Origin: a virus
Lineage: Duplodnaviria; Caudoviricetes
IMG/VR virus record: IMGVR_UViG_3300048598_000552
Location: 1-38,387 of that record
Strand: one strand, 5' to 3'
Length of the DNA: 38,387 nt
The notes beneath the pieces are model-generated. The model saw only the letters and a list, made by a program, of their open reading frames with translations. It searched no databases and was not told the origin of the DNA. Positions within the stretch are counted from its first letter, which is position 1; every line of letters begins with the position of its first letter. A program made the position numbers and the translations under genes. Of the stretch, positions 1,205 to 38,387 are shown piece by piece.

Positions 1205-1345
1205 GTGAAACTGCTTTGTTGCGGCATTATTAAAAAAGATATCCAAACCACTTATATTTTCCGCCCTGGCCGGGTCGACCTTGAAGTCATCCGGATCGAC
1301 CGGACAAGATCAACGATGTCGGAATCCAAGGAGGGAAAAAATTGA
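1205..1345 (+). CDS. small hypothetical protein, 46 aa (not in ORF track)
   Basis: RBS AGGAGG at 1192-1197, GTG start, TGA overlapping the transposase TTG start. Confidence 0.55.
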   Translation: MKLLCCGIIKKDIQTTYIFRPGRVDLEVIRIDRTRSTMSESKEGKN

Positions 1346-3354
1346 GCAACACCGAGCTAACGTTTAACACCGAAAACTGGATTACCACTGAAGAAGCGGC
1401 AAAGTATTTAGGATTAACTCCCCGCGCGGTAAGACATAACGTTAATGAAGGCAAATATGGCGAAATCAAAGAGGAAACCGGACATGACTGCGGTCGTGGT
1501 GGTAAAATCATCCTCATCCGTCCCGAAAACCTCCCGGCTGCTGCATACCTGCGTTATTACGCCAAGCATAACCAGCCGCCCCAGGTAAAGGAACTTGGCC
1601 CCGAATGGGCCCAGGCCACCGAAAGGCAGAAACAAAAAGCCGTCGCAATCCATCAGCGCCTCATCGCCTGGCTGGATTATCGAAAAAACAATCCAAGCAG
1701 CAAAGGCGATTCAGACCGTAATTTCATCGCTGCCTGGCGGCATCTCAACCCGAAGGATCGTGTTTCCAAGGCTACCCTTTACCGGGACTTAGAAAAGTTT
1801 AAGCAAGGCGGCCTGGGCGCGCTGATACCCCAACAAGGCATCATCCTGCGCGGCCAGGAAATCATCGATCCTGAAGCCAGATTCACCTTTATCGCGCTTT
1901 GGGGTAAATTGTCCCAACCGAGCATCTCCCATTGTGTCGAGCAGTTGAAAACCTTGAAGATCCTAAAAGATAAAGACTGGACCCTGCCTTCATCCAACCG
2001 GACTTATGAGCGAATCATTGCCAATCTTGATGAAGCGACCAAAACCTTGATGCGCGAAGGCAAAACCGCCCTTAATAACAAGCATGGCGTTCATATTATC
2101 CGGGATTATGATGGATTGCAAGTGATGCAGATCTGGCAATGCGACCACCAGGAACACGACTTCTTCGTTAAAGGCCCCCACGGGGAGATCGCCAGGCCAT
2201 GGCAGACGGTTTGGATGGATGCTCGCAGCCGGTACGTGGTCGGGTTTCATTGTTCCATGGGTGGCAATACCGACACCATTATAGCCGCCTATGCCGACGG
2301 CAGTCTCGACTTAGAAGGTCTAACTCCATCTCATTGGGTCATCGACAATGGCCGGGACTTTACCGGCAAACGCTTGACCAACGGCTGTAAGAAATTCCGG
2401 AAGATAAATGAGAATACCGTCAAATCCATGACCCAGCACTTGGGGATCACCGTCCATTATTGCATCCCTGAGAATCCACAAGCCAAACATATTGAACGGT
2501 GCTTCCGGACGCTCAGGGAATACTTCGATAAATATCATCCCACATATACCGGGAACGACCCCAAGAAAAGGCCGGAGACTGCTGAGGAGGCCCGTAAGGC
2601 TGGTAAGGTGATGACCTGGAATGAATATGTCCAAGCTTCCAGAGATACCTGGCTCTACTATAATACCCGCCCCCACAGCGGCGACGGAATGGATGGTAAA
2701 TCGCCCAAGCAAGTTTTTTATGAAGGACTGGAAAAAATCCAAGCCCGTAAGGTAAAACCGGAATCCTTAATGTTCCTTATGTGGAGAACTTCGGAGCCGC
2801 GCATAGTGCGAGGCGGCGGTATACAAATCGACCGGGCCTTTTACCGCTCACGAGACCTTTATGAATACGAGGGTAAGAAAGTCTATGCCCGGTATAGCCC
2901 CAACTGCAAAACAGTCTATATTTTCAACGAAGACGACGTCAAACTCTGCGAAGCCGAACTCGTTTCAGAATCGGAATGGCTGAACCAGGAAAAGACCCAG
3001 GAAGGCATGGCAATAAAGTATGCCGGAAAAAAACAGGTTATGCAAAAAGTTAGTAAAATACGCACAGCCGCCGATCCGGACGCCTTAGACGATGCCCAAC
3101 TCCTTGCCAACCAGACCGAAATGGCCCACCGGGAAGATGCCAAAATAATCAAAACCAGGCCCACAGTCATTGAACCGGTACGCACTCCCTTTGATAAAAT
3201 CGCCAAAGAAGCGGTTGCCACTACGACCGACTATAAACAACCGCACCGAATGGCGGTGGCGGTTGGGCAAGAACGATACCGGGAAGATCCGGACGAACGG
3301 GACCGGCGTATTAGCTCCAATTTTGAAAAACTGTATCGCGTGACTCAAAAATAA
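1342..3354 (+). CDS. Mu-like DDE transposase (MuA-like)
   Basis: N-terminal HTH (WITTEEAAKYLG), catalytic WQCD / IDNGRDF / KHIERCF motifs, YNTRPHSG, Mu-transposase C-terminal region; RBS AAGGAGG. Confidence 0.93.
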   Translation: MSNTELTFNTENWITTEEAAKYLGLTPRAVRHNVNEGKYGEIKEETGHDCGRGGKIILIRPENLPAAAYLRYYAKHNQPPQVKELGPEWAQATERQKQKAVAIHQRLIAWLDYRKNNPSSKGDSDRNFIAAWRHLNPKDRVSKATLYRDLEKFKQGGLGALIPQQGIILRGQEIIDPEARFTFIALWGKLSQPSISHCVEQLKTLKILKDKDWTLPSSNRTYERIIANLDEATKTLMREGKTALNNKHGVHIIRDYDGLQVMQIWQCDHQEHDFFVKGPHGEIARPWQTVWMDARSRYVVGFHCSMGGNTDTIIAAYADGSLDLEGLTPSHWVIDNGRDFTGKRLTNGCKKFRKINENTVKSMTQHLGITVHYCIPENPQAKHIERCFRTLREYFDKYHPTYTGNDPKKRPETAEEARKAGKVMTWNEYVQASRDTWLYYNTRPHSGDGMDGKSPKQVFYEGLEKIQARKVKPESLMFLMWRTSEPRIVRGGGIQIDRAFYRSRDLYEYEGKKVYARYSPNCKTVYIFNEDDVKLCEAELVSESEWLNQEKTQEGMAIKYAGKKQVMQKVSKIRTAADPDALDDAQLLANQTEMAHREDAKIIKTRPTVIEPVRTPFDKIAKEAVATTTDYKQPHRMAVAVGQERYREDPDERDRRISSNFEKLYRVTQK

Positions 3355-3363
3355 ACAACGGAG

Positions 3364-4368
3364 GTGTTTGACATGGCGAAAACCGCCCAATTATTCAACA
3401 TTACGGAAGCAGTCCAACCAGATTACGAACTTTTAAGAGAACGGTTGCGGCAATATTTAGAGGCCATCGGTAAAAGTCAAAGTGAAATCGCCAAAAGCAT
3501 TGGCATGACTCCTGCGGTTCTAACCGGATTTATGAAAGGCACCTATAAAGGTGATATATCCGGAGTCGCGGCCAGGCTGGAGGATTATTTGAATCTGGAG
3601 AATCAGCGAATGGCCGCTCCGAAAGAACCGGAATTTGCAATGACCAAGTTTGCTTCCCAGGTCATAGCCGTGGCCGATTACGCCAGGAGAAACAATGATA
3701 TCGGATTGGTCCATGGTGACGCTGGGGTCGGCAAGACCACCGCTTTGGAATATTATGCCGCCGAACATAAGGAAGTCATTATGATTACCGCCGGTGAACA
3801 TCTCGCCACCCCCAAAGCGGTCCTGGAAGAAATCCTTGATAAGCTGGGAGACAGAGAGTATGGCAGCGTGTCCCGGATGGGCAAAAACGTGATTCAAACC
3901 CTGCGAGGTTCCGGACGGCTGATAATCATTGACGAAGCAACTGAGTTAAACGAACGGGCCAAGAAACTGATGCGGACCATTCATGATCATACCAAAGTCG
4001 GGATCGTATACGCCGGGACCCATGAATTATATAAACAGATGTATGGCCGGAACGGAGTCGTTTTTGCCCAATTGCTCTCCCGGATCGGTATTCGGAGAAG
4101 CCTTAAACTCAAAGAGATCTCTAGAAAAGATATTACATTATTGTTTGAGCAAAATGGGAAATTGGAAGAAGATTGTATTGATTTTTTACTTAAAGAGGCC
4201 AAGGGTGATGGAGGTCTGCGCTACGCCAAAAAGGTCTATATGTTGGCCTCCACCTTGGCTTGTAGTGATGGTCGCGACTTGAACATTCAATACCTTAAAG
4301 ATGCGACTGAAATGCTGAAAGAGGAAACGGAAACTACAGAGCAAGGCAAGAGAGGTAAGATCAGATAA
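3364..4368 (+). CDS. MuB-like AAA+ transposition ATPase
   Basis: N-terminal HTH, Walker A GDAGVGKT, Walker B LIIIDEA, QLLSRIG; directly follows the transposase. True start is probably ATG 3373. Confidence 0.92.
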   Translation: MFDMAKTAQLFNITEAVQPDYELLRERLRQYLEAIGKSQSEIAKSIGMTPAVLTGFMKGTYKGDISGVAARLEDYLNLENQRMAAPKEPEFAMTKFASQVIAVADYARRNNDIGLVHGDAGVGKTTALEYYAAEHKEVIMITAGEHLATPKAVLEEILDKLGDREYGSVSRMGKNVIQTLRGSGRLIIIDEATELNERAKKLMRTIHDHTKVGIVYAGTHELYKQMYGRNGVVFAQLLSRIGIRRSLKLKEISRKDITLLFEQNGKLEEDCIDFLLKEAKGDGGLRYAKKVYMLASTLACSDGRDLNIQYLKDATEMLKEETETTEQGKRGKIR

Positions 4369-4373
4369 AAAAC

Positions 4374-4391
4374 GTCAGACACTTGTCTGAC
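4374..4391. promoter_or_regulatory. palindromic operator GTCAGACA-CT-TGTCTGAC upstream of parM
   Basis: Perfect 8-bp inverted repeat 23 bp upstream of the ATG; same consensus as the array at 18226-18287. Confidence 0.65.
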
Positions 4392-4414
4392 TAATAAAAA
4401 GGAGCGATTCGAAT

Positions 4415-5422
4415 ATGGAACACATGGCGATTGATGTAGGATTTGGAGGAACCAAGGCAGTAGCAAGCAACGGTCGAAAAGCCAGCTTTATATCAGTGGT
4501 AGGCGACTTCCACCCGGTGGCATTTGTCTCCGGGATGAATGATGCCACCTCCAATCTGGTGATTGACTATAATTCAAGAAAGAGTTTCGTCGGCGAATCC
4601 GCTTTAAAACAATCGATTCCCAGGGCTACCGTCGACACCGACCGGACTGTCACCGATGAAGGAATGACTTTACTGGCGGCGGCGATGGCGCTACTTGCCG
4701 AAGGGCCAGCCACCAATACCAATATGGTTGTCGGACTTCCCGTCCGTCACTATGAAACCTTGAAAAATCAATACCTAAAGCAAGTACATGCCATTCATGC
4801 GATAGACCTGCTTACTCCTACCGGTGGGTTGATCGAACGCAAATTTGTATCGGTTGAGCAAGCCAGGGTTCTCCCCCAGCCGTTCGGAGCCTTCTTCGAT
4901 TTAATTCTGGATGACAAAGGCAAATTAACCAGCGAAAGCGAGGATCTGGCTAATGGTAAAGTAGGTATCGTGGATATCGGATACAACACCCTGGATTTAG
5001 CCCGCGCCGACCAACTGGAGTATATCAATCCCCGCTCCACATCATTCGCCGGTCAGGGGATTTTCAGCGCCTTTCAGGCTTTATCCAGTGAATTGTATCG
5101 GAGTTTCAAAGTGGAGATCCCGCCGGAGCGGATCGAGCCGATTGTCCGCAGTGGACGGATCAAAGTTGCTGGTAAGGAAACCCCTATTTTCATCCAACAA
5201 GAGACAGCTTTTAAGGAAGCCGCCGCCCAGATTATCAGCCGCATTAAATCGCTCTGGCCGGACCGGTGGGAACTGGATCGGATTCTGCTGGCCGGTGGCG
5301 GCTCCATTTTGTTGGGAAAATACCTGCAAGCGGAATTTAGTGAACAAGCGGTTATTGCCGCCGATCCCGCCTTCGCCAATGTCAATGGATATCTAAAATT
5401 TGCCCGGAGGGTTTGGAAATGA
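4415..5422 (+). CDS. parM: ParM/StbA-family actin-like ATPase
   Basis: Actin-fold motifs AIDVGFGGTK, VVGLP, PQPFGAF, IVDIGYNTLD, LAGGGS, ANVNGY. Confidence 0.9.
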   Translation: MEHMAIDVGFGGTKAVASNGRKASFISVVGDFHPVAFVSGMNDATSNLVIDYNSRKSFVGESALKQSIPRATVDTDRTVTDEGMTLLAAAMALLAEGPATNTNMVVGLPVRHYETLKNQYLKQVHAIHAIDLLTPTGGLIERKFVSVEQARVLPQPFGAFFDLILDDKGKLTSESEDLANGKVGIVDIGYNTLDLARADQLEYINPRSTSFAGQGIFSAFQALSSELYRSFKVEIPPERIEPIVRSGRIKVAGKETPIFIQQETAFKEAAAQIISRIKSLWPDRWELDRILLAGGGSILLGKYLQAEFSEQAVIAADPAFANVNGYLKFARRVWK

Positions 5423-5715
5423 CTGCGCCTCGGTATACATTCCGGGTCAATCCCAGGAGGTACCACGAGCTTTATGAACGGCTGGAATCCATAGAAGAAG
5501 GCGAATTAAGCTTTTGGATAGTGGAGGCGCTGCTTGCAAAAATGGAAATGGAAAAAGGGCTGGTTACTAATGTCACAACTCAGCCGGAACCAATTCCTAA
5601 TTTAGCATCATCCCTACCAATAAATCCGACAATGGTAGAAACGGCAGTTACCTATGAGACCGCAGAAAACAGTGAGATTGAAAGCAAACTTGACCATTTA
5701 GCCCGAATATTTTAA
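5419..5715 (+). CDS. ParR-like small DNA-binding adaptor
   Basis: ATGA-coupled to parM, RBS GGAGG; N-terminal beta-alpha-alpha pattern (RYTFRV...), low-complexity linker, short C-terminal helix. Confidence 0.6.
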   Translation: MTAPRYTFRVNPRRYHELYERLESIEEGELSFWIVEALLAKMEMEKGLVTNVTTQPEPIPNLASSLPINPTMVETAVTYETAENSEIESKLDHLARIF

Positions 5716-6132: not shown

Positions 6133-6364
6133 AAAGCAAATGGACGGTGTCGATAATGAGAAAATCGCGGCGGTAAAAAGTTATCAAAAAAATTGTCCTC
6201 AAAAACTCCGTGATTATGTCGTAAAAACCCTTGGCTATAAAAGATGCAACGACTGGCCTTTTGAAATGCTGGCGGATGAATTTGGATATGGATATATCAG
6301 GTATTGGAATATGGAACTCGAAAAAGTTTTGTCAAATATCAAGGAGGCCCAAAATGGAGTATAA
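6125..6364 (+). CDS. hypothetical protein
   Basis: RBS AAGGAGG, overlaps neighbouring genes. Confidence 0.6.
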   Translation: MTKKQMDGVDNEKIAAVKSYQKNCPQKLRDYVVKTLGYKRCNDWPFEMLADEFGYGYIRYWNMELEKVLSNIKEAQNGV

Positions 6365-6617
6365 CAAAAAGCTAAACAAGGCCGGTTCGCTGACCCTTCC
6401 GGCAGCCATGCGTCGGGAATTAGGTATTGATCGTGGAGATCGATTTAGAATTGTCGTGCAGGATGAAGGAACTATTGAGTTAAGAAGGATTCAAGGTGAA
6501 TGCATATTTTGTAAAGATAATAACAATTTGTTAATCTACGCCGGACGCTTTGTATGCAATAGGTGCTTACAAAATATGAATGAAATTAAAGATGATAGGA
6601 GTGATGATCATGGATAA
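6354..6617 (+). CDS. AbrB/MazE/SpoVT-family regulator with C-terminal CxxC..CxxC
   Basis: KKLNKAGSLTLPAAMRRELGI; CIFC...CNRC; RBS AAGGAGG before ATG 6354. Confidence 0.85.
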   Translation: MEYNKKLNKAGSLTLPAAMRRELGIDRGDRFRIVVQDEGTIELRRIQGECIFCKDNNNLLIYAGRFVCNRCLQNMNEIKDDRSDDHG

Positions 6618-9873: not shown

Positions 9874-9948
9874 CGCGGGGTGGAGGAGCGGTTCCTCAAG
9901 GGGTTCATACCCCCGTTTACGCCGGTTCGAATCCGGCCCCCGCAACCA
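9874..9948 (+). tRNA. tRNA-Met(CAU), initiator type
   Basis: Cloverleaf: C1xA72 mismatch, A11:U24, run of G:C pairs in the anticodon stem, CAT at 9906-9908, GCCGG-TTCGAAT-CCGGC T-arm, encoded CCA. Confidence 0.93.
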
Positions 9949-10002: not shown

Positions 10003-10851
10003 ATGAGATTACGCAGCCCGATTGTTTGGTTTGGCGGAAAAAGCGCGATGGTTTCCAAATTAAAACCATTACTGCCGCCATCTCAATCATACAAGATTTT
10101 CGTTGAAGTCTTTGGCGGGGGAGCCAATCTTTTATTCGCCAAGGAGCCCATGGGAATCGAGGTATATAACGACCTTGATTCGGGTTTGGTTACATTCTTC
10201 CGGGTGTTGCGGGACACCAAAAAATTTACGAGGTTTTACCATTACGCGATAAATACCCCGTACAGCCGGGAAGAGTTCAAGTTTTGCAGGGATTCCTGGC
10301 TGGAGTGTAAAGATGAAGCCCTAAAGGCATACCGCTGGTTTGTCAAGAACCGGATGAGCTTCGCGGGACTAGGGAGAAGCTGGGGACGGTCAGTCACATC
10401 CAGTACGCGCGGGATGGCCGAAGCCCCGGCAAGCTGGATGAGTATCCTGGAATTACTTCCGGTAATCCACCACCGCTTGAGGGGAGTGCAGATCGAACAA
10501 AAGGACTTCCGAGCCATCCTTGCCGAGTATGATACGCCCGAAACGTTCTTTTATTGCGACCCGCCTTATGTGCCAGAAACCAGGCGCGACGGCAAATATA
10601 CCCATGAAATGACGTTGGATGACCACCGGGATTTAGTCCAAGTCTTGTTGCAACTCAAAGGGAAAGCGATACTTTCCGGGTATGCCCACCCGGTTCACCG
10701 GTCATTAGAAGAGGCTGGATGGGAACGCCGGGATTTTGAAATGACCTGCACCGCCACCGGCAGGACTCGTGGAAGCAGGCACTTGACCAAAGAGCAATTA
10801 AAGCGAATCGAAAGCGTATGGATCAGTCCAAAGCTCAAATCAGGAGGTTAA
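10003..10851 (+). CDS. Dam/D12-class N6-adenine DNA methyltransferase
   Basis: WFGGKS, FVEVFGGGA (SAM binding), YNDLD, YCDPPY; start reassigned to ATG 10003 because the longer ORF runs through the tRNA. Confidence 0.9.
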   Translation: MRLRSPIVWFGGKSAMVSKLKPLLPPSQSYKIFVEVFGGGANLLFAKEPMGIEVYNDLDSGLVTFFRVLRDTKKFTRFYHYAINTPYSREEFKFCRDSWLECKDEALKAYRWFVKNRMSFAGLGRSWGRSVTSSTRGMAEAPASWMSILELLPVIHHRLRGVQIEQKDFRAILAEYDTPETFFYCDPPYVPETRRDGKYTHEMTLDDHRDLVQVLLQLKGKAILSGYAHPVHRSLEEAGWERRDFEMTCTATGRTRGSRHLTKEQLKRIESVWISPKLKSGG

Positions 10852-11418: not shown

Positions 11419-11633
11419 TGCGCAACGGAACCAAGATATTAATCGGATTCATCGTTACAAATCAGTTAGTCATTTATTCCCTGGTGTTTTTAGGACTTTT
11501 CACCCAAAAATCAAATCCAACCTTTTGGCCCAATGCGGCGGGAGTTATCGGAGCTTTAGCCGGGTTTAGCGCCTTGGCATTTGGAGCCAACGAATGGCGG
11601 AAAACAAGAGAAAATACAACCCGTAAGGAGTGA
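11418..11633 (+). CDS. putative holin (2 TM, basic C-terminus)
   Basis: Two hydrophobic segments, tail WRKTRENTTRKE, TAATG-coupled to the endolysin. Confidence 0.6.
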   Translation: MRNGTKILIGFIVTNQLVIYSLVFLGLFTQKSNPTFWPNAAGVIGALAGFSALAFGANEWRKTRENTTRKE

Positions 11634-12091
11634 TTTCCATTTGCAGATTAAATTTTCGATGTTTGTTGCTGCCCTTATTATCGCTTTTATTGCTGGTTAT
11701 TATCTCAGCTTCAACCAGAGCCGAGTCGAACTACGCAATTACCGAAAACGACTTGACGAAACTACTTTCAATCTTGCAAAGGCTCGAAGCGCTCAACAAG
11801 ACGCTATCCGAAGAGTTGAATACCTCCAAAACGAACTTGACGCTGCTACAAAACGAGTTAACGATTTGCAAGCAAGAGTTGACGGAATTAGAACAACGGC
11901 TGCAAGTATCGGAGACGGAATCGAAAGCGCTGTTAAGGGAGTTAACGAATGCAAACACCTTATTAACGAAAGCATCACTATCCTTCAACGAATACAAGCA
12001 AGCGGCGGAAGCGAAGATCCGTAAATTGGCCTTCCAGCGTAACATATCAATATTCGTAACAATCATTACTTTTTTAGGGGTGGCGCTTTAA
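11630..12091 (+). CDS. spanin-like protein: signal peptide + coiled coil + C-terminal TM
   Basis: LLLPLLSLLLLVIISASTRA, heptad-rich body, ISIFVTIITFLGVAL; GTGA/TAATG coupling to both neighbours. Confidence 0.6.
   Translation: MISICRLNFRCLLLPLLSLLLLVIISASTRAESNYAITENDLTKLLSILQRLEALNKTLSEELNTSKTNLTLLQNELTICKQELTELEQRLQVSETESKALLRELTNANTLLTKASLSFNEYKQAAEAKIRKLAFQRNISIFVTIITFLGVAL
11641..12024 (+). CDS. i-spanin-like protein embedded in another frame: N-terminal TM + coiled coil
   Basis: RBS AAGGAG (11625-11630) with TTG 11641 (or ATG 11659); FVAALIIAFIAGYYL then a helical body. Confidence 0.55.
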   Translation: MQIKFSMFVAALIIAFIAGYYLSFNQSRVELRNYRKRLDETTFNLAKARSAQQDAIRRVEYLQNELDAATKRVNDLQARVDGIRTTAASIGDGIESAVKGVNECKHLINESITILQRIQASGGSEDP

Positions 12092-13078: not shown

Positions 13079-13642
13079 ATGGGTGAACAGCGCCGCAGAA
13101 CCAGGATTCGGTCTAAAATCGATGATCTGCCGCCGGACGTTAAGGTCATGGTTGACCTGATGTTAGCGGATACACGTAATACGTATCAAATGATTGCCGA
13201 TTATATCGCCAGCACCGGCAATGAAGTATCCAAAAGCGCGGTTGGCGCATATGCGCTCCGGAAGAACTCAGCTGCTCAACGGCTGAAAGAGGCGCAGGAA
13301 CAAACCAAAACCTTGATCGAAGTGGTTAAACAAAATCCTGACGCTGATTATACTGAACCGGCGCTGCAAATTATCGGCGGCGAATTGACCAAAAAATTCG
13401 CGGCGGCCCAGGAAGAATGGGACGAAATGCCGCTCGACAAGGCCGGGAGACTGATGGTTGCCCTCTCCCGTACCAAGGTTTATAAGGATAAAATCCGGGC
13501 GGATTTAGCCGCGAAAACCAAGGTGGCGCTCGAAGAATTTAAACGACAAGTATACGCTGAGTTTGAAAAATATCCGGATCTATTGGAGCGGATTATCTCC
13601 ATCGCCAATCAGATGGCCGATAAGCTGGAGGGAGACGAATGA
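13079..13642 (+). CDS. Mu gp27/DUF3486-like putative small terminase
   Basis: RSKIDDLPPDVK...TYQMIADYI...VSKSAVGAY. Confidence 0.82.
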   Translation: MGEQRRRTRIRSKIDDLPPDVKVMVDLMLADTRNTYQMIADYIASTGNEVSKSAVGAYALRKNSAAQRLKEAQEQTKTLIEVVKQNPDADYTEPALQIIGGELTKKFAAAQEEWDEMPLDKAGRLMVALSRTKVYKDKIRADLAAKTKVALEEFKRQVYAEFEKYPDLLERIISIANQMADKLEGDE

Positions 13643-14130
13643 ACTGGTATGTCCTGCAGGTCCGAACCGGCGAAGAGGTCGCCATCCGGAATGCCATCGA
13701 AAACAAGATCGGTGTTAAAGCCTGGGTACCGCGCCGCACCATATGCGAGCGCCATCAGGGTAAAATACAAACTGTCATCAAGACCATTTTGCCATCCTAT
13801 GTATTTACTCAAATCAACTTGGAGCCAAAGGTTTATTATCAGTTAAGACGTATCTCCGGAGTGATCCGGTTCCTGGGCGGCAATGGCCCGGAGCCGGTAC
13901 CGGAACCGGAAATGACATACATGTTTAAAATGTGTGGTGATGGTGAACTGGCCGGACTATCCACCCTCTCCATCGGCGACGGTATCAGGGTACTGGCCGG
14001 GCCGCTCCAAGGGATGGAAGGACAGATCGTCCGAATTGATAAGCGCAAGCTCCGGGCCAGGGTCAGGCTGACCCTCTTCGGTCAACCTCATTTTGTGGAT
14101 ATGGGTTTGGAGGTTCTAAATGGAACTTGA
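13639..14130 (+). CDS. NusG-paralog antiterminator, LoaP-like
   Basis: NGN domain MNWYVLQVRTGEE...ILPSYVF...GVIRFLG; KOW GDGIRVLAGPLQGMEGQIVRIDKRKLRARV. Confidence 0.88.
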   Translation: MNWYVLQVRTGEEVAIRNAIENKIGVKAWVPRRTICERHQGKIQTVIKTILPSYVFTQINLEPKVYYQLRRISGVIRFLGGNGPEPVPEPEMTYMFKMCGDGELAGLSTLSIGDGIRVLAGPLQGMEGQIVRIDKRKLRARVRLTLFGQPHFVDMGLEVLNGT

Positions 14131-18225: not shown

Positions 18226-18287
18226 AGTCCGACAATTGTCCGACAAATGTCGGACGGTCGGCCAAATGTCCGCCATTTGTCGGACAA
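18226..18287. repeat. array of six TGTC(C/G)G(A/C)CA-like units, parC-like
   Basis: Units start at 18226, 18237, 18248, 18256, 18267, 18278; contains a perfect 14-bp inverted repeat TTGTCCGACAAATG/CATTTGTCGGACAA. Confidence 0.8.
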
Positions 18288-18323
18288 ATCAATCTAGCTG
18301 GGGTTTTGTGCTGAGGTGATTTG

Positions 18324-32687: not shown

Positions 32688-34282
32688 TGGCTACAACTCC
32701 GGATTATTTACAACAAACCGAAGAAGAAATCCGGCAGCGGATGCTGGATAGTTTGCCTTCCGACCTGGATAAATCGGAAGGCTCTTATATTTGGGATACG
32801 ATTGCCCCGGCTGCCATTGAATTGTTTTTAGTTTCATTGTTGGGGCAGGATATTTTGACCAAAGGATTTGCCAGTACCGCCGCCAGCCAGATTGCAGGGT
32901 TTAGGTCTTCCTATTTGGATCTGCGGACGGAGGAACACGGCGTATTTCGCCGCGCCGCAGTAAAAGCATCCAAAGAAAACGGGGTGGAAATTACGGGAGA
33001 AATCGGTACTGTAGTTCCTATCGGCACCAAATTCGCCACCCCCGCCGATCCGGTTACCAATACTCCGTCCATTGAATTTGAATCCACCAACGAAATCACG
33101 TTGGAGGCGGCTACGGGGTATGTTGATGTCCAGGCTGTCGATGGCGGGATCTCCGGCAATGTTCCGGCTGGCGCTATCAGCATTCTAGTGACTCAAATAC
33201 AGGGAATTACGGCAGTTACCAATCCCGTACCGATAACGGGCGGATTGGACAAAGAAGAGGATGTTGCTCTGTTAGCCAGGTATTTGCAACGGGTACGCAA
33301 TCCATCGTCCAGCGGCAACCGGGCCGACTATATCGCCTGGGCGCTGGAGGTCTCCGGCGTCGGCGGGGTGTCGGTTATCCCGGTCCGGGATGGTCCGGGT
33401 ACGGTGAGCGTGGCCGTGCTGAACCAAACCATGGAACCGGCTGACCAGACGCTGGTGGATGCGGTCCAGAACTATATCGCGCCGCCTCACGTGCTGGAAC
33501 AGGAAGCGGAAAATATGACGATAGATGGTTATGGGGTGTCAATCGATGATACCCTGGCCGACGACTCCGGCGACAGTGTGATGATGGTATATGACTCTGC
33601 CGGAGCCGGGGTGATCAGCCACCGTTTGGAAACAATTCTGCCGCAGTTGGGTATATGGCAGGCCAGGGTCAAGGTAAAAGCTGATGTTGTCACGGGTGGG
33701 ACGGACCTTCTGCAAATCGGCATTTGGAATGTATCAGGGGCAAGCTGGTGTAAGACGGCTCCCCTGGGCAGTGTGGATGCTGTTAAAACATTCAAGGGAA
33801 ATGAATTGACTACCGGATTCAATGATATATCCGTGGAGTTTTACTGGAACGGACAGGAGCAGATTGAAATCCAGGTTTCGAGACTGACGACCGATGGCGG
33901 CACCACGGTCTGGGTGGACCGTATGATTTTCCGTTCTACTTTTTCACGGGACGATGGTGACGGCAAAGCGCCGATTGGGGCCAGGGTGACGGTGGAACCG
34001 GCCACGGCTGTTTTAATTAACATATCGGCCATTTTGGTGATTTCAAACGGATATAACGCCGAGAGCGTAAAAAGCGCGGCCACCGAAAATATTCGGACTT
34101 ATATCAAGTCGCTGGCGTTTGCCCAGGATAATGACGTCCGATATGTACGGATTGGCGAAAAGATATTAGACACGCTAGGGGTATATGATTTTTCAAACCT
34201 CACGGTTAATGGAGGAACAGCCAATATCCCCATTGAGTCCCAGGAAGTGGCGGTTTTAGGGACGGTGACCTTCACGACATGA
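32687..34282 (+). CDS. baseplate J-like protein (XkdT-like) with inserted domain
   Basis: DKSEGSYIWD..APAAIE, GGLDKE, SGNRADYIAWALEVSGVG, GPGTV, APIGARVTV. Confidence 0.9.
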   Translation: MATTPDYLQQTEEEIRQRMLDSLPSDLDKSEGSYIWDTIAPAAIELFLVSLLGQDILTKGFASTAASQIAGFRSSYLDLRTEEHGVFRRAAVKASKENGVEITGEIGTVVPIGTKFATPADPVTNTPSIEFESTNEITLEAATGYVDVQAVDGGISGNVPAGAISILVTQIQGITAVTNPVPITGGLDKEEDVALLARYLQRVRNPSSSGNRADYIAWALEVSGVGGVSVIPVRDGPGTVSVAVLNQTMEPADQTLVDAVQNYIAPPHVLEQEAENMTIDGYGVSIDDTLADDSGDSVMMVYDSAGAGVISHRLETILPQLGIWQARVKVKADVVTGGTDLLQIGIWNVSGASWCKTAPLGSVDAVKTFKGNELTTGFNDISVEFYWNGQEQIEIQVSRLTTDGGTTVWVDRMIFRSTFSRDDGDGKAPIGARVTVEPATAVLINISAILVISNGYNAESVKSAATENIRTYIKSLAFAQDNDVRYVRIGEKILDTLGVYDFSNLTVNGGTANIPIESQEVAVLGTVTFTT

Positions 34283-34854
34283 GTGATTATCCAATTACCA
34301 GTCAAAGGGGCCAGTTGATACTGGACTATATTCCGGCCTATTACCATGCCAGCCGGGTGATGAGGTCGATTATCCAGGCGCTGGGAACCGAGTTTGATAG
34401 TGTTCAGGATGCCTTTCAGTCCGTTTTGAAACAGTTTTATATCAATACCGCCGACGAATGGGGATTGGATTTATGGGAGAAGGAACTGGCGCTGCCGCCA
34501 GGTGATTCGGAGACCGTGGCTGAACGGCGGCAACGGATCATTGCCAAATTGCGCGGCAATGGTACGGCCACGATAAAAGCCATTAAATCATTGGCCGAAA
34601 GCTATGATAAAGGTTTAATCGATGTTGCCGAGGATTTTTCACAATACACGGTGATTCGGTTTGTGGATACAACCGGTATTCCATCGAACATTGATGACTT
34701 GAAGGCCATCGTCCGGGAGATTGTACCGGCGCATCTGGCGCTGGATTTTCAATATAACTATTTTATTTGGGATGAGCTTGATGCGCTAAGCCTTAATTGG
34801 GATGAGTTTGATGCGCTGAACCTCACCTGGGACCAGATACTGGTATATAAATGA
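34279..34854 (+). CDS. baseplate protein (XkdU/DUF2313-like)
   Basis: QFYINTA.EWGLDLWEKEL, ERRQRIIAKLRG, PAHL. Confidence 0.85.
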   Translation: MSDYPITSQRGQLILDYIPAYYHASRVMRSIIQALGTEFDSVQDAFQSVLKQFYINTADEWGLDLWEKELALPPGDSETVAERRQRIIAKLRGNGTATIKAIKSLAESYDKGLIDVAEDFSQYTVIRFVDTTGIPSNIDDLKAIVREIVPAHLALDFQYNYFIWDELDALSLNWDEFDALNLTWDQILVYK

Positions 34855-34869
34855 TTGGAGTGATTTATT

Positions 34870-36408
34870 ATGCCAACCACTACGCCAAAACTCGGGATTG
34901 AAAAACCGCTTGGTAATGAAACGGTCAATCGTAATGTAATCAACCTAAATTATGACAAAATTGATGAGAATGCCGCCGCCCAGAGCCAAGTTGATGAGCC
35001 GTTTTATCTTAAATCGGCGGTGTATGACGCGGGGAATAATAAAATTGATCTGACGTTTGGCCCAGGGAAGGCGTCGTTTTTGGGGACGTTAGTTTCGAAG
35101 ACCGCTGATTTTAGTTATAGCATTAATTCCCCCACTTCAAATACCACATATTATGTGTTTATCAAAAATGATGGGAGTTGTACGCATAACACCACCGGAG
35201 AGGCGATTACGGGGGCGGCTCTGATTTGGAAGGTTATTAATGGGGTGTCCGTAGAAAACATTACCACCGAAGATGTGAGAGGTCGGCTCCCGGATGCGTC
35301 GGCCAGGGCGGTGCAGGATAATTTGGAGAGCCATGCGGGATCGGGAGATAATGCCCATGCTTTGGCCACTCAAAGTACTGCCGGGTTCATGAGTGCGGCT
35401 GATAAAACAAATTTGACCAATCACCTTGGCTCTGGTGGTACGGCTCACGCTACGGCCACTCAAAGTACTGCCGGGTTCATGAGTGCGGCGGATAAAACGA
35501 TTTTGGATTTATTGGCGTCGGCTAATGTTACAAATTATAACTTATCCTTCGAATACGACAGCGATGCGGACGGTGTCCCTGATGGTTGGAACTGGGTTAA
35601 CTTTCCAAACGGAACTTGTGAAATGGATACATCGGCAGTTGAAGGGACTTATTGCGTTAAAATCACGCACCCAGGTGGAAGTGGTAGCGGCGGTGGCCAT
35701 TTAACTTCCGGATTCATTCCAATCCAAAGGCAGGTAAATAATTATTTTATACAGTTTGCGTTATGGTCCTCTGTGGCGGGTATTCGAAATGACATTGTTC
35801 TACTCTTTTATGACTCAAATAAGGCCTATATATCCAGTGTGTCGGTTTATTCCAGCACTTCGAACCCGACAAGCGCAGCCCTATTCATAACCCAAATCCC
35901 ATCCATACCATCCAATAGTAAATGGTGTAAAATCCGACTGTATGGCGGACACGATGCGGTAGCTACGGGCGGAACGACGCGTTTTGACTGTATTAGTCTG
36001 TATAATATGTTTCACTTAACTGGTAATAACGCGGGAACAGTGCCAACGTTTCCGGAGCGGGCAAAAGCCTCTGATATAAATTTTACTGATGCGGAGGCAA
36101 ATTTGTATGTACGAAGCAATAAAGGATTCCGGCTTGGTTATATGCCGTGCACAATTAGTTTAACAGTTAAAGGCGGTTCCACCGGTATAGGAGCCGAATT
36201 CAGATTACGATGTGGTTCGGAGTATGGCGATTATTATTTTTTAGCAACGACGAACTACCAATATGTAGATGTCCCGCTATCGATTACGATTGCCGATCCA
36301 TCCTCCCCAATAATGCTTGCAGTCCAGTACAGGACTCGTGGAACCGATTGGGTGGGAGTGAAGCGAGAGTCTACGTCTGCAACAATTTCTGTAGTTAATA
36401 ACTGGTAA
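34870..36408 (+). CDS. tail fibre / receptor-binding protein
   Basis: TPKLGIEKP...NYDKIDE N-terminus, two ATQSTAGFMSAADK repeats, CBM-like NLSFE..DGVPDGW region. Confidence 0.8.
   Translation: MPTTTPKLGIEKPLGNETVNRNVINLNYDKIDENAAAQSQVDEPFYLKSAVYDAGNNKIDLTFGPGKASFLGTLVSKTADFSYSINSPTSNTTYYVFIKNDGSCTHNTTGEAITGAALIWKVINGVSVENITTEDVRGRLPDASARAVQDNLESHAGSGDNAHALATQSTAGFMSAADKTNLTNHLGSGGTAHATATQSTAGFMSAADKTILDLLASANVTNYNLSFEYDSDADGVPDGWNWVNFPNGTCEMDTSAVEGTYCVKITHPGGSGSGGGHLTSGFIPIQRQVNNYFIQFALWSSVAGIRNDIVLLFYDSNKAYISSVSVYSSTSNPTSAALFITQIPSIPSNSKWCKIRLYGGHDAVATGGTTRFDCISLYNMFHLTGNNAGTVPTFPERAKASDINFTDAEANLYVRSNKGFRLGYMPCTISLTVKGGSTGIGAEFRLRCGSEYGDYYFLATTNYQYVDVPLSITIADPSSPIMLAVQYRTRGTDWVGVKRESTSATISVVNNW
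35364..35498 (+). repeat. 45-bp direct repeat (1 mismatch), 90-bp period, in the fibre gene
   Basis: GGCCACTCAAAGTACTGCCGGGTTCATGAGTGCGGC(T/G)GATAAAAC at 35364 and 35454. Confidence 0.9.
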
Positions 36409-36427
36409 CGGATGAATTTGACGCGCT
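36405..36427 (+). repeat. 23-bp direct repeat, copy 2
   Basis: Identical to 23658-23680; contains the fibre stop codon. Confidence 0.9.
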
Positions 36428-36441
36428 AGGAGGGAAAAATA

Positions 36442-36663
36442 GTGGTAAACGTACTAGTGATTTTTGATGAGGAAAACATTTACGCATGGCTGGTTGGCGA
36501 ATCGGTAGAAAGTGCTGAAATGCATATTATGAACGGATACCCGAAATTGATTGAGCCATACCGACAAGGGAACATTAAAACAGCAATTATATCAGTACCG
36601 GAGGATGATGCTTTTAATAAGACCCTGTATAGGGTTATTGATGGCGAAATAAGGAATATTTAA
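36442..36663 (+). CDS. small protein after the fibre gene (possible fibre chaperone)
   Basis: RBS AGGAGG, GTG start, ends YRVIDGEI. Confidence 0.6.
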   Translation: MVNVLVIFDEENIYAWLVGESVESAEMHIMNGYPKLIEPYRQGNIKTAIISVPEDDAFNKTLYRVIDGEIRNI

Positions 36664-36684
36664 TAAAATTTTAATAATTCTTCA

Positions 36685-36713
36685 TTGAACATTTTACATT
36701 TTTAGGATATCAT
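36685..36713 (+). promoter_or_regulatory. sigma-A-like promoter
   Basis: TTGAAC-N17-TATCAT with AT-rich upstream sequence. Confidence 0.6.
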
Positions 36714-36744
36714 TGAATTAAGAATAATATTAGGAGTGAGGCAA

Positions 36745-37656
36745 ATGAAAAAGATATTTGCAGTGTTGATCTGTTTGATAGTGGTTTTTGGTCTGATTGG
36801 CTGCGGCGGTTCAAAACCTCCTACAAGAACATATACTTTGGAAATCAATGTTACCGGCCAATCAATCCAGGAAACAGCGGTGTATATGGCAAATAAATTG
36901 CATTCCATGGCCGTAATAAAAGATCCGGACTGGTGGATCGACCGGGCTGAAAATGAATATTTTAATTATATTATGAGAGGTTCTGATGGCAATTTGGATG
37001 GGGGCGTCGAAGCCCATGCAATATTGCGTGATGATTTAGGGAATACGGTTGCACCTATTAATACGAATGATATAGTTTGGTCAAGTCCTGATAATCCGGT
37101 TTGGAGCGCAACCGGTCTAACCGCTAATTATTATAGTAGTACTCAAAACCGATATGTATTAAGAGTTGATTTTGATGGTGATATCTATACCGATGTCAAT
37201 ACCGGAGACATGACCCCAATCCATGTTACATTATCGGCGGAAGCGGTTGTAATACTGGTTTATTCAAATTCCGAGTTTCCCGGTCAGACCGATTATTTTA
37301 ATATGACGAATATCCAATGTGTGTCCGGGCCAATCGGCGCGGAAATTTACCACACAAATGAGGGCGGCATCGATTATATAAACGCGCCGTTTGGCATGGC
37401 GTTAATACTCGATCAGGAGATTGACCACCTAACCAGCGAAATCAATTGGTTTATACTTGGTTCTGTCAAGAAAGTTCCGGATGGCTTAACATTCACTGAT
37501 ACAAAATTACCGCTAACCAATTACGGTACATATATTGTTCGGTTAAGTGGCGGCGGATATGCAAAAGTTCAGGCGTGGATGGGAACATCAATAATGTGGT
37601 TTTTATATTCAACCTCACCTGATAACCAGTTTTCAATTCACTATGGGACATTATAA
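36745..37656 (+). CDS. lipoprotein (moron-like)
   Basis: MKKIFAVLICLIVVFGLIG-C lipobox; has its own promoter and terminator. Confidence 0.8.
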   Translation: MKKIFAVLICLIVVFGLIGCGGSKPPTRTYTLEINVTGQSIQETAVYMANKLHSMAVIKDPDWWIDRAENEYFNYIMRGSDGNLDGGVEAHAILRDDLGNTVAPINTNDIVWSSPDNPVWSATGLTANYYSSTQNRYVLRVDFDGDIYTDVNTGDMTPIHVTLSAEAVVILVYSNSEFPGQTDYFNMTNIQCVSGPIGAEIYHTNEGGIDYINAPFGMALILDQEIDHLTSEINWFILGSVKKVPDGLTFTDTKLPLTNYGTYIVRLSGGGYAKVQAWMGTSIMWFLYSTSPDNQFSIHYGTL

Positions 37657-37687
37657 TAGCCGTTTAAACGATTTTTATCTATGATTT

Positions 37688-37714
37688 AAAACCGCTTCAA
37701 AGAGGCGGTTTTTT
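37688..37714 (+). terminator. intrinsic terminator
   Basis: AAAACCGCTTC-aaa-GAGGCGGTTTTTT. Confidence 0.8.
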
Positions 37715-37742
37715 ATAATCACGACGGAGGTGTTTTGCACTT

Positions 37743-38387
37743 ATGGAACAGTATATTGCATTGTTGTTAATGATCCTACCGGGATTTGCGGCTCATCAGA
37801 TTTATGAACGGATGAACAGCGGAACCAAAGCTGAAGATACGTTCGATAAAACGGCCATTTCTCTGCTTTATAGTGTTGGAGTATTGGGAATGAACTATTT
37901 TTTTATTTGGCTCTTATGGGGTTTAACAACTATCAGCCAGATTATGAATAGTTTCAATCGTATTGGGTTTATTTTGAGTTATATCTTGATTACAGTGGCT
38001 TCGTGTCTAATTGTAGCGGTGATCTGGAACTTTATTTATCCGAGGATTCCATGGGTATTAAATCTGGTTCGCCGAATTGAAAAAAAACCGGATATCGGTG
38101 AACAGGAAACCGTTTGGGACCATATATTCCGAAAAACTAAGTATCATGCGGTTTCTATTGAAAGAGACGGCGTAGAAATAGTGAACGGGATAATTTCTGG
38201 ATTTAGTTTTGGCCATAATACCAATAAAGAGTTTTATATCGAACAAGTCGGCTTAATTAAGAAACGGCCTGAATTATTCGATGAGGTCAAAGGAGTTTAT
38301 ATTGATTGCCAGAATAACTTAATAATAAAAGAGTACGACCTCAAGAAGGCGTACTCTGAAATGGATTCCAAAGGTGTTAAGTACTAG
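37743..38387 (+). CDS. membrane protein, 3 TM + soluble domain (DUF6338-like)
   Basis: ILPGF in first TM, TVWDHIF, RBS GGAGGTG. Confidence 0.65.
   Translation: MEQYIALLLMILPGFAAHQIYERMNSGTKAEDTFDKTAISLLYSVGVLGMNYFFIWLLWGLTTISQIMNSFNRIGFILSYILITVASCLIVAVIWNFIYPRIPWVLNLVRRIEKKPDIGEQETVWDHIFRKTKYHAVSIERDGVEIVNGIISGFSFGHNTNKEFYIEQVGLIKKRPELFDEVKGVYIDCQNNLIIKEYDLKKAYSEMDSKGVKY

Follow-up and report, generated by a model that had tools for sequence, protein, structure and literature searches.

The analysis of a 38,387-nt virus record (hereafter the window, meaning the whole stretch of DNA that was analysed) revealed a parM-parR gene pair that is intact, under selection and not decayed, placed directly behind the transposition genes of a Mu-like phage (Table 1). 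By sequence comparison this cassette is a graft that is confined to one lineage and kept in at least two strains. Two sites with short tandem repeats accompany it: the smaller, ahead of parM, is a likely candidate for the ParR operator and the larger, 14 kb away, is a likely candidate for parC. Tentatively, and with slightly less than even confidence, we propose that the cassette is an early-operon ParMRC spindle, which would separate integrated copies of the phage during lytic transposition.

The window encodes a Mu-like gene set, all on one strand, comprising muA, muB, GemA, Mor, a gp27-type small terminase, terminase, portal, head morphogenesis protein, capsid and contractile tail. A DDE transposase (MuA) followed by an AAA+ MuB, GemA, Mor and the gp27-type small terminase marks it as a Mu-like transposable phage. 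Gene borders mark both limits of the window, and a 242-kb contig is on record as carrying its proteins, so it is likely to represent a prophage cut out of host DNA in the record. The closest parM relatives in named genomes were found in Bacillota MAGs, at 39-53% identity.

Table 1. Features of the window that bear on the parM-parR cassette (positions in nt)
Feature	Position	Strand	Evidence or location
muA, DDE transposase	1342-3354	+	Pfam DDE_2 (E 2.7e-20); PHROG 310
muB, AAA+ transposition protein	3373-4368	+	Pfam AAA_22 (E 1.7e-18); PHROG 296
Two 9-bp TGTC-N-GACA-type units, 11 bp apart (candidate ParR operator)	4373-4392		In the muB-parM gap, ahead of the ribosome-binding site
parM, actin-like ATPase, 335 aa, intact	4415-5422	+	Pfam, PHROG and PDB sequence matches; model; Foldseek
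parR-like adaptor, 98 aa	5419-5715	+	21-sequence alignment; family profile; model
Six units of the TGTC-N-GACA-type 9-mer (candidate parC)	18226-18286		Gap between the portal and head-morphogenesis genes

The parM-parR pair and its repeat sites

The parM gene starts 46 bp downstream of the end of muB (4368), on the same strand, and its stop codon is overlapped by the ATG of parR (ATGA), which bears out the placing of the pair directly after the muB-like gene in the initial annotation of this DNA. The parM product matched Pfam ALP_N (E 3e-24) and MreB-like_C (E 1.1e-13), both above their cut-offs, was assigned to PHROG 691 ‘partition protein’ (E 1.2e-52) and, in a sequence search of the PDB, matched pCBH ParM (E 5e-18). 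It scored under the NCBIfam cut-off for PRK13917 ParM (87 vs 417 bits) and below that for PRTRC system protein D (TIGR03739; 88 vs 214.8 bits), and no PRTRC-type neighbours were found among the window genes scanned. Using the predicted model (pLDDT 92.7), Foldseek placed solved ParMs ahead of MamK and MreB, with pCBH ParM (E 1.9e-24) and pSK41 ParM (TM 0.77) among the top matches. Five actin-fold motifs were seen at residues 7-14 (DVGFGGTK), 154-158 (PQPFG), 187-192 (DIGYNT), 293-296 (AGGG) and 322-326 (NVNGY), and D7, G9, K14, P154, Q155, D187, G189, T192, G294, G295, N322 and G325 were invariant in 38 aligned relatives. The product is a ParM-class actin-fold ATPase with intact nucleotide motifs, as in type II ParMRC systems.

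The parR product had no Pfam or PHROG match of its own. Genes downstream of parM in relatives align with it (21 sequences), and in this alignment the first 45 residues are conserved and ribbon-helix-helix-like, the linker is variable and the last helix, ending in Phe, is conserved. The model places helices at residues 16-24, 30-51 and 82-97, with a low-confidence linker. A profile of the family, which found 110 clusters at E 1e-10 or better, matched PDB entry 2q2k (E 4.8e-5), which we take to be pSK41 ParR on DNA, and the ribbon-helix-helix protein NikR (E 8.3e-5); in a fold search 2q2k and pB171 ParR ranked first, but these matches were weak (Foldseek E 0.46 and 1.1). The product has the anatomy of a ParR, being a small downstream adaptor with a ribbon-helix-helix-like N-terminal part and a C-terminal helix that would serve as the ParM-binding tail, and is predicted to be the DNA-binding partner of ParM. 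The original ParM/ParR call is upheld.

Selection was estimated against L105, a relative. The dN/dS of parM was 0.076 (333 codons), indicating purifying selection, and that of parR was 0.34, with 0.17 in the first 44 codons; purifying selection was stronger on parM than on parR in this comparison. The gene after parR in L105 (30 aa examined) matched nothing. A decaying insertion was ruled out by the open frames, the invariant motifs, the dN/dS of parM and its GC content (0.51), which is like that of the muA and capsid genes. The possibility of a one-off insertion in decay, raised alongside the initial annotation, is contradicted by the same dN/dS and by the presence of a second strain.

The units at both repeat sites are near-palindromic and have an 11-bp period. 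The pair ahead of parM is followed by the ribosome-binding site AAGGAG (4399-4404), and the larger array consists of two runs of three units, starting at 18226, 18237 and 18248 and at 18256, 18267 and 18278. The pattern GTCNGACANNTGTCNGAC (≤3 mismatches) was matched 6 times in the window against 0.73 expected, a number reached by 0/100 shuffles, and five of these matches fall at the two sites; as the pattern was derived from those sites, the shuffle figure describes recurrence rather than an independent prediction.

The distant array is likely to be parC, given that comparable repeats stand ahead of parM in related cassettes, which belong to integrase-bearing Bacillota elements. An early guess that 18226-18287 is a centromere gains from these relatives and from the occurrence of the unit ahead of parM in the window itself. 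In 6/18 related loci (L026, L106, L111, L113, L118 and L269) parM is preceded by a GxxNGAC pair at a distance of no more than ~70 nt, and in L025 such a pair stands ~750 nt upstream. A GTAWTAC variant is found upstream of parM in L004, L031, L110 and L270, which were chosen by eye for it; in three of these four, again by eye, NFK replaces TFR-like residues in the predicted ParR strand, a swap that would fit with ParR reading the repeat. No such repeat was seen upstream of the parM relatives in large SNF2-helicase phages (L002, L003, L108 and L112). A reading of the array as a MuA end-type site was set aside, since relatives that lack muA also have the unit ahead of parM. Taken by itself the unit proves little, and the repeat is not specific, as 45 viral contigs (L310-L354) carry tandem three-unit repeats of the TGTCNGACA type with an 11-bp period and have no ParM match in the stretch examined.

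The cassette shares with the type II ParMRC systems of pSK41, pCBH and R1 the parM-parR order, the actin fold and a ribbon-helix-helix-like adaptor with a C-terminal helix, as well as short tandem repeats upstream of parM (excerpts of PMC5016525). As a matter of sequence anatomy only, tandem 10-11-bp repeats make up the candidate centromere and are also present in the upstream region of the operon, whereas a single centromere locus upstream of parM and around the par promoter was not found: only two units stand there, and the main array lies 14 kb away from the genes. In a crude scan the muB-parM gap showed no sigma-70-like promoter. In L118 a promoter is readable by eye ahead of parM.

The position of the array within the genome was estimated from sister phages. 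The sister G001 is complete, starting with TGT and ending with ACA, and L189 shares its left-end motif; the left ends of the two map to about window -1,940 to -2,290, so that by alignment the window is without ~1.9-2.3 kb on the left (the repressor and ner region). TG...CA ends with transposase sites were seen in G001 and, on the left, in L189, but not in the window. A search of its last part (33001-38387) gave no end motif of the sister type, and the right end therefore likely lies beyond 38387. For an assumed right end between 41,000 and 38,387 the array would stand at 47.0-50.5% of the genome, and with ends taken from the sisters it is likely to mark the midpoint. There are 11 intergenic gaps of ≥60 nt in a hand-made gene list, and the chance of occupying the one nearest or second nearest to the middle is ~1-2 in 11; with both ends inferred, the central position is thus a lead.

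Distribution of the cassette

A second strain was seen in the metagenome sample X1, where one contig runs across the muB-parM junction (4253-5239) with 35 differences in 987 nt (96% identity). An X1 contig with the array has 33 differences in 701 nt (~95% identical), none of which falls in 18227-18322. At the local rate, the chance of an unchanged 60-nt array is ~0.055, and that of 96 unchanged nt is 0.01, which is suggestive, from this one sample, of conservation of the array itself. In X1 parM and the array are on different contigs. At the equivalent place behind the end of the portal gene, an array of three units is present in another, more distant X1 contig.

The initial annotation had pointed to other Mu-like prophages as a place to look for parM beside muB, but a ParM profile match was found in 0/83 other MuB loci. 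This set combines the 80 best viral matches (of 161), with the record of the window itself left out, and 4 genome matches; 81 of the loci were examined over at least 1.5 kb downstream. Two more MuB loci beyond the 83 also gave no ParM match. This count indicates a lineage-restricted graft and, together with the complete sister G001, which is without parM, rules out parM as a general feature of Mu-like phages. In two sisters (MuA 74-75% identity) other genes occupy the slot of parMR, including a lytic transglycosylase-type gene, and the absence of parM from such close sisters implies that it is dispensable for Mu-like phages of this host group. Searching from the other side, only the window's own record among 183 parM loci has muA or muB nearby; for the other 182 (0/182) this applies to the stretch examined, most being distant relatives and many short.

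The array was absent from the portal gap of 8/8 portal relatives (48-86%, two near-identical), which also had no ParM match, and ParM was found in 0/5 whole records of portal relatives, none of which is 90% complete. Unit pairs numbered 0 in 94 partly overlapping Mu-like loci (1.26 Mb), compared to 4 in the window. Among the Mu-like phages examined to date, the distant array thus occurs together with parM. In L302, which is the nearest of the portal relatives, this gap is occupied not by the array but by a gene of 177 aa (11454-11987, +), with a CxxxCxxC motif that is presumably radical-SAM-like.

A quick tree grouped the window ParM with P0002, P0003, P0126 and P0004 (SH-aLRT 100). The longest contig is 42,594 nt both for P0004 (ParM, 73%) and for P0082 (MuB, 45%), and this shared figure is a hint, not proof, of a second, divergent Mu-like carrier of parM. 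Uncharacterised parMR cassettes of the PHROG 691 family occur in Bacillota prophages, islands and large phages; they resemble that of the window in ParM (41-61% identity), in a common ParR family and in repeats that are equal or variant, but stand beside integrases or SNF2 helicases and not beside muA/muB. Serine or tyrosine recombinases adjoin parM in L106, L111, L116, L117, L118 and L031 and lie ~5 kb away in L025, and the other close parM relatives with context adjoin SNF2 helicases. The likely source from which the cassette was captured is a family that occurs in Bacillota prophages and islands with integrases. Further ParM-like genes, more distant (25-37%), were noted in Bacillota and Desulfobacterota genomes (L273-L297 and L027-L104); most of those examined have no ParR-like gene behind them and they are possibly chromosomal actin families.

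Matches to the ParM family were present in 113 GenBank phage records (best 30% identity). The term ‘undescribed system’, used at first for this cassette, is too strong for its parts, since phages commonly carry ParM-family genes and there are published partition systems from integrated elements. Phage actins and partition systems of integrating elements are already known; the Mu context and the central array are what we did not find in print. Searches of the open-access literature turned up no description of a transposable phage that carries a ParMRC-type cassette and has the main repeat array of that cassette displaced to the likely midpoint.

Possible roles of the cassette

The same strand, the 46-bp gap, the gene overlap and the lack of a promoter-like site in our scan suggest that parMR is likely expressed with muAB, which argues against upkeep of a plasmid-prophage and for a role in infection or lytic transposition. 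Transcription would come from the early lytic promoter on infection or induction, and not in the quiet lysogen. Judging from relatives and from known ParR-parC complexes, each ParR dimer would bind one 9-bp unit; at the two-unit site ParR may damp parMR, and on the six-unit array it may form a centromere complex. ParM filaments capped by two ParR-array complexes would then elongate, as in type II systems, and separate two phage copies by their midpoints. Such copies could be two products of replicative transposition, or copies on mixed host-phage circles, and the replication of Mu does give heterogeneous host-phage circles (excerpts of PMC10052514). More speculatively, copies might be spread through the nucleoid, aiding later rounds of target capture or packaging. 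To our knowledge, ParM spindles move free plasmids and not segments tethered in a chromosome. Six units are also short for a centromere, which counts against the spindle. Of the roles suggested at the outset, the positioning of replicating copies is the one that the anatomy favours, while nothing was found in support of delivery into the forespore.

A comparable case of an actin and a DNA-binding adaptor in an integrated prophage is AlpAC/alpS of the Corynebacterium prophage CGP3, which is induced early and for which a role in positioning the phage DNA as it replicates has been proposed (excerpts of PMC4446434). Once the integrated prophage has been induced AlpAC becomes active, and its mutants have about half the phage DNA (excerpts of PMC4446434). 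Unlike the window phage, CGP3 excises and replicates as a circle, alpS is located at the promoter and the gene order is not parM-parR.

An alternative that we consider quite unlikely is that the array stands in for the gyrase site of Mu. Here ParR would bend or wrap the midpoint, or a ParM filament would drag it. This would hold the tip of a supercoiled loop in place and bring together the two ends, each 20 kb away, for assembly of the transpososome. The strong gyrase site (SGS) is likewise a cis site near the centre of Mu, within the head genes (excerpts of PMC10052514, PMC3820752 and PMC5977238) and near genes G and I (excerpts of PMC10052514); pairing of the Mu ends needs its central position (excerpts of PMC3820752 and PMC10052514), and ParR is described as wrapping and bending parC DNA (excerpts of PMC5016525). 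The near-central array of the window, under the assumed ends, agrees with this, as does L118, in which the sole array found (14.9 kb examined) is the one upstream of parM. However, both true ends of the phage are outside the window, a central gap could be hit by chance as calculated above, and sisters without parMR have no array there, one of them having an extra gene in that gap, so the portal gap may simply accept insertions. The SGS recruits host gyrase, whereas the array matches the repeat of a phage-encoded predicted ParR; other strong gyrase sites were unable to replace Mu's own (excerpts of PMC10052514); and the conservation of ParM would be left unexplained. The spindle and the gyrase-site-like pairing of ends can coexist. 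An unlikely but more far-reaching combination is filament-assisted transposition, in which the cytoskeleton of the phage would replace or supplement the gyrase-based genome organiser of Mu: ParR would grip the integrated genome at its exact middle, and ParM filaments would move this point, driving synapsis of the ends and pulling daughter copies to fresh chromosomal targets. If true, partition machinery would here be at work on DNA that stays in the chromosome throughout.

The cassette could also serve a free-DNA stage, either an injected protein-closed circle prior to integration or a carrier state in a slow-growing host, which ParMRC would segregate or position as it does a plasmid; we regard this as improbable. 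It would suit the nearest relatives with context, which adjoin serine or tyrosine recombinases and hence belong to elements that excise, and it has a parallel in srpMRC of the SXT/R391 integrative conjugative elements, a functional ParMRC in a normally integrated element that stabilizes the excised form (excerpts of PMC4489591). Unlike the arrangement in the window, srpMRC acts on an excised, replicating circle and has its centromere upstream of srpM. Infecting Mu DNA is itself a transient, protein-closed and non-covalently closed circle (excerpts of PMC3325207), but this incoming circle is one copy only, and a spindle requires two. Neither a Rep gene, a replication initiator nor a site-specific integrase was found among the 52 window proteins scanned (Pfam and PHROG), no further iteron-like array appeared in a 12-mer repeat scan, which is insensitive as it also missed the known array, and the occurrence of the proteins on a 242-kb contig fits an integrated state. 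The extrachromosomal stage suggested initially has indirect support from the excising relatives and the circular Mu DNA.

Somewhat more doubtful still is that ParR is mainly a transcription regulator, acting as a roadblock within the early operon (two-unit site) and within the head operon (six-unit site), or that the array is an RNA hairpin, with ParM a recent passenger in either case. Both sites do lie in intergenic gaps of long operons, and the array folds as RNA at -41 kcal/mol (z -3.3), with z -2.2 for the site upstream of parM. The hairpin is mostly gone from the three units of the more distant X1 contig, in which the 11-bp repeat is kept, and neither a terminator-like tail nor a promoter-like site was found in the gap between the portal and head-morphogenesis genes. 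The stronger purifying selection on parM than on parR also speaks against this reading, with the caveat that the context of L105 is not established. We hold it very unlikely that the cassette acts in competition, extra ParR/ParM or a decoy parC disturbing co-resident prophages or islands with the same repeat, or bringing them together with the phage as targets for its transposition; near-identical repeat units are indeed seen in relatives located in several other mobile elements, but a host shared by such elements is without support.

The accepted view of type II partition systems is that they move free replicons, and what a chromosome-borne ParM does is stated to be open (excerpts of PMC12270681). 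A compact three-part system in a phage that multiplies while integrated would make it possible to test directly whether chromosomal segments can be moved by an actin spindle, and also whether Mu-like phages outside Proteobacteria solve the pairing of ends 40 kb apart without a gyrase site. Should only a transient circle be positioned, the cassette would be a modest extension of the AlpAC and srpMRC cases.

Other features of the window and its sister phages

Several further genes of the window were recorded. A tRNA gene with a CAT anticodon (9874-9948, +) lies between mor and the gene of a D12-class adenine methyltransferase (10006-10851, +), the latter ahead of the lysis genes, and the tRNA stretch also matches the sisters G001 and L189. 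A NusG-family antiterminator (13639-14130, +) is encoded between the small and large terminase genes and is also present in several sister phages. At the right end of G001 (L187 74-1761, -) a reverse transcriptase and a bAvd-like gene follow the tail genes, a pair that family matches identify as a diversity-generating retroelement; none was found among the window proteins scanned. The early operon of the window includes an AbrB/MazE-fold gene (6354-6617, +), the product of which has a CxxC...CxxC tail and a weak, sub-threshold match to the sigma-G inhibitor Gin family (E 0.0098). The right end of the window (36736-38387, +) holds two low-GC genes, encoding a 306-aa protein without family match and a DUF6338 protein, each with its own intergenic region, and these are likely accessory cargo.
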